From: Escherichia coli
GTDB taxonomy: Bacteria; Pseudomonadota; Gammaproteobacteria; Enterobacterales; Enterobacteriaceae
DNA length: 41,498 nt
Reading direction: 5' to 3' (one strand)
Assembly: GCF_003334305.1 (NCBI RefSeq)
Contig: NZ_QOWS01000030.1
Numbering within the stretch: position 1 is the first letter of the stretch; the number at the start of each line of letters is the position of its first letter. Positions 3,024 to 4,289 of this stretch are shown here, piece by piece. The notes beneath the pieces are model-generated. The model worked only from the letters and a program-made list of their open reading frames with translations, made no database searches and was not told the origin of the DNA. The position numbers and the translations under genes are program-made.

Positions 3024-4289
3024 TTACGGTTTGAAGTCCAATGGCGCGTTTTTGAACACTTCATATACTGCCTGGCTTGGTGGTTTCGGGATCTTCGCAA
3101 GTTTAGCTGCTGCCAACGCAGCCTGACAAAGTGCGGGATCGCCACCTTCAGGTTTGATATCCAGTAACATACCATCGGGTGCCAGTTTTATGCGCAGCGT
3201 ACAGGTTTTGCCTGCATAGGACGATGCGTCATAGAACTTACTTTCGATAGCAGATTTAATCTGCCCGGCATAGTTATTGATATCGGCCCCTGATGCGCCA
3301 TTGTTTTTAGTATTACCACTCCCGGCAGGCGAAGCATTGTTCCCTTTCGCCCCTCCCCCCGTTTTCGGTGCATTCTTACCAGAGCTTAGCTCACCGAAAA
3401 TATCATCTGCCTCTGCGGCCGCTTTTGCTGCAGCGGCTTTTTCAGCTGCAGCTTTTGCCGCTGCCGCTTTTTTGTCTGCGGCGGCTTTTTCTGCCGCTGC
3501 TTTCTTATCAGCTGCTGCCTTTTCAGCAGCCGCTTTTTCTGCTGCTTTTTTGTCGGCTGCAGCTTTCTCTGCTGCCGCTTTCTTATCAGCTGCAGCCTTT
3601 TCAGCAGCCGCTTTCTTCTCAGCTTCTGCTTTGGCTTTTTCAGCAGCTTCAGTTGCCGCTTTCTTTCTTGCTTCAGCTGCAGCTGCTTCTGCCGCTTCCG
3701 CTTTCTTCTTCAGTGCCGCAGCGGCTGCCTCGGCTTTTTTCTGCGCTTCGGCTGCGGCTTTGGCGGCTTCTGCTTCTGCTTTTTTCTTTGCGTCTGCAGC
3801 CGCTTTCTTCGCTGCTTCTTCCGCAGCTTTAGCATCTGCTTCGGCCTTCGCTTTAGCATCTGCCGCCGCTTTCGCTGCCGCCTCTTCAGCTTGCTTCTGC
3901 TTTAACTCGGCCTGTTTTGCGGCTTCTTCAGCCTGCTTTTTCTGCTCCTGAGCCGCTAACCGCTCTTTCTCAAGTTGCTTCAGGCGTTCCTGTTCAGCCG
4001 CTTGTTTCTCACGCAGTTCTTCAGCAGCCTGCTGTTCCTTCATCTTGCGCTGTTCATCAGAACGCTTCGCGCTTGATTCCTGGCTTTGCATGCGTTTGTA
4101 CTGCTCAACTACCGCACCTGAATCAACCATGACAGCGTCGATGGACGAACCACCGCCGCCTCCGGCTGAAGCTTCTATATTCTCATCGAACGAACTCCAG
4201 ATCAGCGCCGCAAATAAGATGACATGCAGCACTGCTGAAATAATTATCGCCCGCTTGAGCTTGTCGTTTTGTTCGGTTGCCTTTGACAC
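3024..4289 (-). CDS. tolA: Tol-Pal system protein TolA, 421 aa, with long Ala/Lys/Glu-rich helical domain II
   Basis: ORF 3024..4289 minus: MSKATEQNDKLKRAIIISAVLHVILFAALIW..., central KAAAEKAAADKK repeats, C-terminal globular domain. Confidence 0.95.
   Translation of the reverse strand: MSKATEQNDKLKRAIIISAVLHVILFAALIWSSFDENIEASAGGGGGSSIDAVMVDSGAVVEQYKRMQSQESSAKRSDEQRKMKEQQAAEELREKQAAEQERLKQLEKERLAAQEQKKQAEEAAKQAELKQKQAEEAAAKAAADAKAKAEADAKAAEEAAKKAAADAKKKAEAEAAKAAAEAQKKAEAAAAALKKKAEAAEAAAAEARKKAATEAAEKAKAEAEKKAAAEKAAADKKAAAEKAAADKKAAEKAAAEKAAADKKAAAEKAAADKKAAAAKAAAEKAAAAKAAAEADDIFGELSSGKNAPKTGGGAKGNNASPAGSGNTKNNGASGADINNYAGQIKSAIESKFYDASSYAGKTCTLRIKLAPDGMLLDIKPEGGDPALCQAALAAAKLAKIPKPPSQAVYEVFKNAPLDFKP
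3400..3960 (-). repeat. tolA: In-frame tandem nucleotide repeats encoding TolA domain II (A/K/E-rich heptad-like repeats)
   Basis: Plus strand shows iterated units such as gctgccgctttcttatcagctgcagccttttcagcagccgcttt; these produce the spurious antisense ORFs 3277..3951 and 3368..3832. Confidence 0.8.

Follow-up and report, generated by a model that had tools for sequence, protein, structure and literature searches.

An in-frame variable tandem repeat in Escherichia coli tolA: structure of the array, length alleles and their likely origin

The stretch of Escherichia coli DNA analyzed here, a window of 41,498 nucleotides, carries within its tolA gene a repeat that is almost certainly the well-known intragenic in-frame VNTR of E. 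coli tolA, the MLVA locus CVN004. The repeat is constituted by a canonical array of 13 imperfect units of 15 or 18 nt, located at 3411-3617 on the minus strand and encoding units of the form (K)KAAA(E/D/A) (aa 225-293), as delimited by a unit-by-unit parse, TRF and codon shuffles. A first-pass annotation had proposed that the whole interval 3400-3960 consists of iterated units, prone to slipped mispairing or recombination and therefore variable in length between strains. The feature is real and the interpretation is correct; the interval was drawn too wide, and the repeat has been known since 2012. True tandem repetition beyond that due to composition is confined to approximately 3411-3665 and to a two-copy 24-nt repeat at 3826-3876. 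A documented polymorphism was correctly predicted from sequence alone, and the case serves as a positive control for this kind of reading.

TolA, the cell envelope integrity protein of the Tol-Pal system, relays force to the outer membrane from TolQR, the motor in the inner membrane; the periplasm has to be bridged by its domain II. The tolA coding sequence occupies positions 3024-4289 on the minus strand, starts with GTG and encodes 421 aa. It was identified from the list of open reading frames (ORFs) and from NCBIfam and Pfam matches, and corresponds to the K-12-type '13-repeat' allele. The cut-offs of two TolA equivalog models of NCBIfam are exceeded: NF007065 scores 554 bits (cut-off 213) and TIGR02794 scores 308 bits (cut-off 59). 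The gene is 100% identical to the annotated tolA of many complete E. coli genomes, K-12 derivatives included, and therefore there is no sign of an assembly fault in the window.

Domain III, the C-terminal region of TolA (aa 325-419), is encoded at 3033-3317 on the minus strand and matches Pfam PF06519 (E = 2e-38). The membrane-anchor segment of domain I (4191-4238, minus strand) was recognized in the translation by its SHLS motif, S18-x3-H22-x6-L29-x3-S33, which has been defined as Ser-x3-His-x6-Leu-x3-Ser in the N-terminal transmembrane helix (PMC10666116, PMC12204202). The interval 3400-3960 encodes aa 110-297 and lies inside domain II, which is helical according to the literature. Domains I and III are identical in protein sequence across 13 aligned alleles (the first 12 variants and the window allele) and contain no indels in any of them. 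Three neighbouring minus-strand ORFs, of 142 aa (4354-4782), 230 aa (4786-5478) and 431 aa (1599-2894), resemble tolR, tolQ and tolB, respectively, in size and order; they are candidates for these genes, which would place tolA between tolR and tolB in a tol-pal operon.

The tolA gene is present in all the complete E. coli genomes searched (5,426 of 5,426). Its length was surveyed in three evenly spaced systematic samples, obtained with different query alleles and comprising 59 full-length rows each (177 rows in all). The comparison showed that this length is not invariant across the species, as the first-pass annotation had anticipated: 17 in-frame classes were found, ranging from 1185 to 1344 nt (394-447 aa). 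A length of 1266 nt is present in 119 rows (67%) and the remaining in-frame rows fall into 16 other classes, namely 1311 nt (16 rows), 1299 nt (8), 1251 and 1290 nt (5 each), 1185 nt (4), 1275 and 1215 nt (3 each), 1221, 1224, 1233 and 1281 nt (2 each), and 1218, 1260, 1263, 1296 and 1344 nt (1 each). The only length that is not a multiple of three, 1265 nt, belongs to a pseudogene found in one row. If domain II were one continuous helix, the range of 394-447 aa would amount to about 80 Angstrom.

Genome counts made for two of these alleles agree with the samples. At an identity of at least 99%, the 1311-nt allele was found in 519 complete genomes and the 1185-nt allele of O157:H7 Sakai in 106. 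Three alleles, of 1185, 1215 and 1275 nt, occur among the sampled O157:H7 and related strains, and strains UTI89, NU14 and APEC O1:K1:H7, presumably all of ST95 type, carry a tolA of 1251 nt. Alleles are thus largely stable within lineages and, since three ST95-type strains share one length and the 1311-nt allele recurs in 519 genomes, natural turnover must be much slower than the rate measured in the laboratory suggests.

That rate comes from the work of Zhou, Michiels and Aertsen (2012, PLoS One 7:e47766; PMC3477136), who described in tolA '13 imperfect repeats of 15 or 18 bp', a description for which Levengood et al. (1991) and Schendel et al. (1997) are cited there. Contraction was measured at 6.9x10^-5, fell to 15% of this value in a recA mutant and rose 3.3-fold in a uvrD mutant. 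Most laboratory contractions were five-unit deletions, which may reach the degenerate units upstream of the array and never remove units 12 and 13. Among 234 isolates, 8-16 copies were found, with 13 copies in 66% of them (Zhou, Vanoirbeek, Aertsen and Michiels, 2012, Res Microbiol 163:316, as reported in PMC3477136). The repeat studied by those authors and the one described here are the same locus and nothing essential differs. The two data sets agree on the proportion of the main allele (67% here, 66% there), on the part played by the upstream units, on the 78-nt super-repeat and on the integrity of the distal units. Our survey adds a slightly wider range (394-447 aa) that includes an allele longer by 78 nt, as well as changes beyond the canonical array, in a 24-nt unit and through a 42-nt deletion.

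With respect to function, we infer fitness differences among the natural alleles. The chief rival view, to which we assign a minor but appreciable probability, is that the length polymorphism is real and selectively neutral, domain II being a tolerant spacer and the alleles drift markers of lineages. A tolA deletion is complemented, in part or in full, by every engineered variant of 2-39 units, and all of them restore wild-type tolerance to SDS and hyperosmolarity (PMC3477136), which speaks for neutrality. However, tolerance to deoxycholate climbs with copy number, so that plating efficiency spans four orders of magnitude, and plating of phage fd peaks at 13 units and drops to 28-43% in every variant with another copy number (PMC3477136). 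In 0.6 M NaCl at pH 5 the best tolerance was observed at 6-13 units (PMC3477136). The strongest of the published phenotypes belong mostly to extreme constructs (2, 6, 26 and 39 units) outside the natural range, which favours neutrality, as do the dominance of one allele (67%) and the way in which the 1311-, 1185- and 1251-nt alleles follow lineages. On the other side, all 17 natural classes are contained within 394-447 aa, a narrow span next to the 2-39 units with which laboratory strains are viable, and the fact that units 12 and 13 are never lost (PMC3477136) suggests constraint.

Neutrality also draws on reports that chimeras with a TonB-derived or an elongated domain II retain partial function, and the TonB and TolA domain II sequences are described as partly exchangeable. 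TonB, a homologous force transducer, likewise possesses a repetitive periplasm-spanning spacer, in this case made up of Glu-Pro/Lys-Pro dipeptide repeats. However, the TonB domain II forms a polyproline-II helix instead of an alpha helix and has no sequence similarity to domain II of TolA. The in-frame repeat can be seen as a mutable ruler in the TolA spacer, a neat case of tuning of a structural protein.

The repeat retains the reading frame, as had been supposed: the lengths of the units, the lags between copies and the 17 length classes are all multiples of three. A role as an on/off phase-variable contingency locus was considered and rejected, given these multiples of three and the lack of internal stops. 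The repeat alters the length of the TolA protein, not its expression state.

The extent of the repetition was assessed by self-comparison, counting diagonal windows with at least 24 matches in 30 positions, and 200 codon shuffles, in which frame, codon usage and amino-acid composition were kept, served as controls. Over aa 110-297 as a whole, 167 windows were found versus 10.6 +/- 8.8 in the shuffles (maximum 43). This excess is located at aa 224-297 (about 3400-3632), which gave 122 windows versus 4.1 +/- 8.1, with dominant lags of 78, 111, 33 and 144 nt. No excess repetition was detected by the same comparison at aa 110-223 (3633-3960, minus strand), with 1 window versus 1.7 +/- 3.3 and a longest exact repeat of 14 nt versus a shuffle mean of 12. 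This Ala/Lys/Glu-rich portion of domain II is non-periodic according to codon shuffles and composition, the only exception being the two-copy 24-nt repeat revealed by TRF. Thus, of the iterated structure attributed to 3400-3960, true tandem periodicity holds for the first part, about 40% of the interval, and the other 60% reflects compositional bias; in the self dot-plot, this second part shows low complexity only. Nor are the units 'near-identical', as they had been called: no two of the 13 are the same, and the identity between copies at any one lag is 67-77%.

TRF reported a period of 78 nt in 2.0 copies at 3461-3619, together with nested periods of 15, 30, 33 and 45 nt. This five-unit super-repeat, on the minus strand, consists of two copies with 88% identity (TRF score 255); it produces the strongest diagonal, at lag 78, and contains the longest exact repeat (20 nt). 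Upstream of the canonical array lie degenerate units (3618-3665, minus strand), recognized in the protein parse as KKAATEAAE-KA-KAEAE, which also take part in rearrangements. The second, small variable repeat (3826-3876, minus strand; TRF period 24 in 2.1 copies) has a unit of 24 nt encoding ADAKAKAE and is present here in two copies. The arrays of tolA are the only ones with a TRF score of at least 60 in the 41.5-kb window. A reading in which there is no true tandem repeat, the periodicity arising merely from the low complexity of an Ala/Lys/Glu-rich sequence, describes 3633-3960 well. For the locus as a whole we hold this reading to be very improbable, and for 3411-3665 it is ruled out by TRF, by the codon shuffles with their discrete lags and by natural indels that correspond to whole units.

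For the indels, 22 variant tolA genes were set against the window allele; 21 were in frame and one, that of NCTC_86, was frameshifted and is flagged as a pseudogene. Every indel of the 21 in-frame alleles maps to 3504-3707 or to 3860, without internal stops. Six alleles differ from the window allele by one indel and no SNPs (-48, -45, -42, -33, +30 and +78 nt). These one-indel alleles each stem from a single recent event, independent of the others, on a shared allele background, and several alleles have originated in a single step by deletion or duplication between direct repeats. For instance, the junctions of the -45, -42 and -33 deletions show 8-11 nt of homology, and the +30-nt allele is an exact tandem duplication. 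In strain C9 the additional 78 nt, with no SNPs, are an exact copy of the five-unit super-repeat, which is a likely substrate for events of +/-78 nt; among the 177 sampled rows, the +78 expansion is present and the -78 contraction, which predominates in the laboratory, is absent.

Rearrangements also involve the sequences upstream of the canonical array. The -48-nt allele of strain 2013C-3513, with no SNPs, lacks exactly the degenerate units at 3618-3665, and the same units are included in an 81-nt deletion in O157:H7 Sakai. The alleles of AVS0542 and O157 have canonical units in their place. Farther upstream, and outside the canonical array, a segment at 3656-3707 (minus strand) contains two direct repeats of 10 nt (AAGAAAGCGG) between which 42 nt are lost: strain 20AR0300 lacks 3666-3707, with no SNPs and a junction homology of 10 nt, and strain T16R has a tolA of the same length. 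Strain AST216 carries a 6-nt deletion at 3681-3686. In GPEC606, E04 and 13P477T, an insertion of 24 nt after gene position 429 provides a third ADAKAKAE copy (the 1290-nt allele). Units 12 and 13 are intact in every allele examined.

These positions, the one-indel alleles and the homologies at their junctions bear out the earlier attribution of the polymorphism to slippage or recombination. The mechanism that we propose has as its substrate the C-terminal part of domain II, where 13 imperfect units of 15 or 18 nt, with degenerate flanks, are arranged in higher-order repeats of 33 and 78 nt. Misalignment of units would lead to the gain or loss of whole units, either by replication slippage at microhomologies of 8-11 nt or, where the longer 78-nt copies pair, by unequal recombination that depends on RecA. 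The outcome would be a lengthened or shortened alpha-helical, periplasm-spanning spacer in a TolA protein that remains full-length because all units have lengths divisible by three, and neither the domain I anchor nor domain III, which binds TolB, phages and colicins, would be altered. Slippage and recombination probably both contribute, because junctions of 8-11 nt typify RecA-independent slippage, yet 85% of the published contraction is RecA-dependent.

It could be argued instead that the differences in tolA length are artefacts of assembly in which repeats were collapsed or expanded. Misassembly classically arises at repeats, and the NCTC_86 gene does have a frameshift. However, the nucleotide missing there, a single one, belongs to a homopolymer at 3360, outside the repeat, and the array itself, of only about 250 nt, is below the span of a read pair. 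Hundreds of complete assemblies, made independently, contain the same alleles, the 17 classes are all multiples of three and free of internal stops, and PCR fragment sizing in MLVA studies reveals the same polymorphism, all of which makes an artefact extremely improbable.

The practical use of the tolA repeat is as a strain-typing marker. CVN004 belongs to the generic MLVA scheme for E. coli of Lindstedt et al. (cited in PMC3407997, PMC3877011, PMC5217547 and PMC11773471), and it has been ranked among the most variable loci in several MLVA studies. The numbering of its alleles differs between PMC3407997 and PMC5217547. Its primers (PMC11773471, Table 1) could be placed in the window, the reverse primer at 3319-3340 on the plus strand with an exact match and the forward primer at 3700-3719 on the minus strand with one mismatch. 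These sites bracket the array and leave the 24-nt repeat at 3826-3876, of which about 3% of complete genomes have three copies, outside the amplicon.

In-frame VNTRs of tolA are used as typing markers in other enterobacteria as well. Those of Salmonella Enteritidis (SENTR1/SE-10, with a 45-bp unit in 7.8 copies) and Klebsiella pneumoniae (MLVA locus 53) are likened to the E. coli repeat by description, and differ from it in unit length and sequence.

It is moderately probable that the length variation of tolA exceeds the 13-unit array, by means of the 24-nt unit, the 42-nt loss and alleles of equal length that differ in structure. Two alleles of 1299 nt, for instance, carry a 33-nt insertion at different sites, and the length of tolA by itself is therefore homoplasious. 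CVN004 fragment sizing cannot separate such alleles; typing by fragment size would therefore under-count tolA alleles and suffer from size homoplasy. The 24-nt variable unit, the 42-nt deletion and the size homoplasy were not found in the accessible literature; the first two may already be reported in the 2012 Res Microbiol paper. All three are the sole items of this analysis that are possibly new, and they are minor.

The first-pass annotation had also remarked that the repeat creates long spurious ORFs on the opposite strand, and two of them were indeed found on the plus strand, one of 224 aa at 3277-3951 (100 Ala, 40 Ser and 39 Phe) and one of 154 aa at 3368-3832 (62 Leu). Neither has a family match in NCBIfam, and both are mostly a matter of composition. 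In codon-shuffled tolA, the frame of the 224-aa ORF has about 1.2 stops per 185 codons versus about 8.7 expected at random; the Ala, Lys, Glu and Asp codons of the sense strand leave in it only GCN, TTN and TCN, and therefore stops are impossible there. That the 224-aa ORF is a genuine overlapping gene can be practically discarded: it is long and its natural SNPs are 34 synonymous versus 4 non-synonymous, but this ratio, equal to that in the tolA frame, is uninformative because the third codon positions of both frames coincide, the predicted product is 80% Ala/Ser/Phe, and the frame stays nearly free of stops when tolA is shuffled. In the 154-aa frame, 36 of the 38 distinct natural SNPs would be non-synonymous and 2 synonymous, which tells against a coding role for this ORF. 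Composition explains this second frame only in part, since the real sequence has 2 stops versus about 6.3 in the codon shuffles; the fixed order of residues within the units also matters here, and the low stop count reflects that order and is no sign of coding. Both plus-strand ORFs are by-products of composition and repeat order.

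Alleles of tolA that share the same length are not necessarily identical by descent. For instance, the 1299-nt gene exists as two alleles (the variants L009 and L018 versus the variant L011, fetched from complete genomes), one carrying its 33-nt insertion after gene position 665 and the other after position 705. Since the insertion sites differ, equal tolA length need not mean common origin, and there is size homoplasy among alleles of one length.

The region encoding the helical spacer (domain II) contains a second small variable repeat, located at 3826-3876 and formed by a 24-nt unit that encodes ADAKAKAE. 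Two copies of this unit are present in the window tolA and three in the 1290-nt allele (protein WP_000030668.1), a length found in 5 of the 177 full-length tolA rows sampled from complete E. coli genomes, three of these five rows having been sequenced. This repeat lies outside the amplicon (3319-3719) of CVN004, the MLVA locus that covers the main tandem repeat, and it would therefore be missed by fragment-size typing.

At least three tolA lengths (1185, 1215, and 1275 nt; variants L001, L012, L017, and L010) occur in O157:H7 and closely related strains, whose tolA genes all show an A-to-D substitution specific to their lineage (ADDKAAEE in place of ADAKAAEE). The presence of several lengths together with this common substitution suggests turnover of the tolA repeat inside a young clone.

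Natural SNPs are concentrated in domain II: 30 of the 38 distinct SNPs fall between gene positions 330 and 890 (window 3400-3960), which represent 45% of the gene. Most of the distinct SNPs (34 of 38) are synonymous. This pattern could be due to weak codon constraint, to conversion between repeat units, or to alignment ambiguity within the repeat. The frame of the 224-aa antisense ORF at 3277-3951 (plus strand), judged spurious, gives 34 synonymous to 4 non-synonymous SNPs, exactly the ratio of tolA itself, because the third codon positions of both frames coincide. As a methodological caution, comparing synonymous with non-synonymous counts is no basis for rejecting an ORF in this particular antisense frame, which shares its third codon positions with the sense gene.

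In one complete genome, that of isolate NCTC_86 (NZ_OZ489144.2, variant L013), the annotation gives tolA as a pseudogene with a frameshift. The reading frame is broken by a 1-nt deletion at window position 3360, in the C/G homopolymer coding for the glycine-rich linker and not within the tandem repeat, and this deletion may be a sequencing error.

With respect to genomic setting, the sizes and order of the minus-strand ORFs at 1043-5879 fit pal, tolB, tolA, tolR, tolQ, and ybgC; the neighbours of tolA are presumed to be these genes from expected size and order, and the whole tol-pal cluster appears to be present in the window. Among complete E. coli genomes, a few show tolA matches at two places, and plasmid-typed records hold 2 of approximately 5,430 matches.
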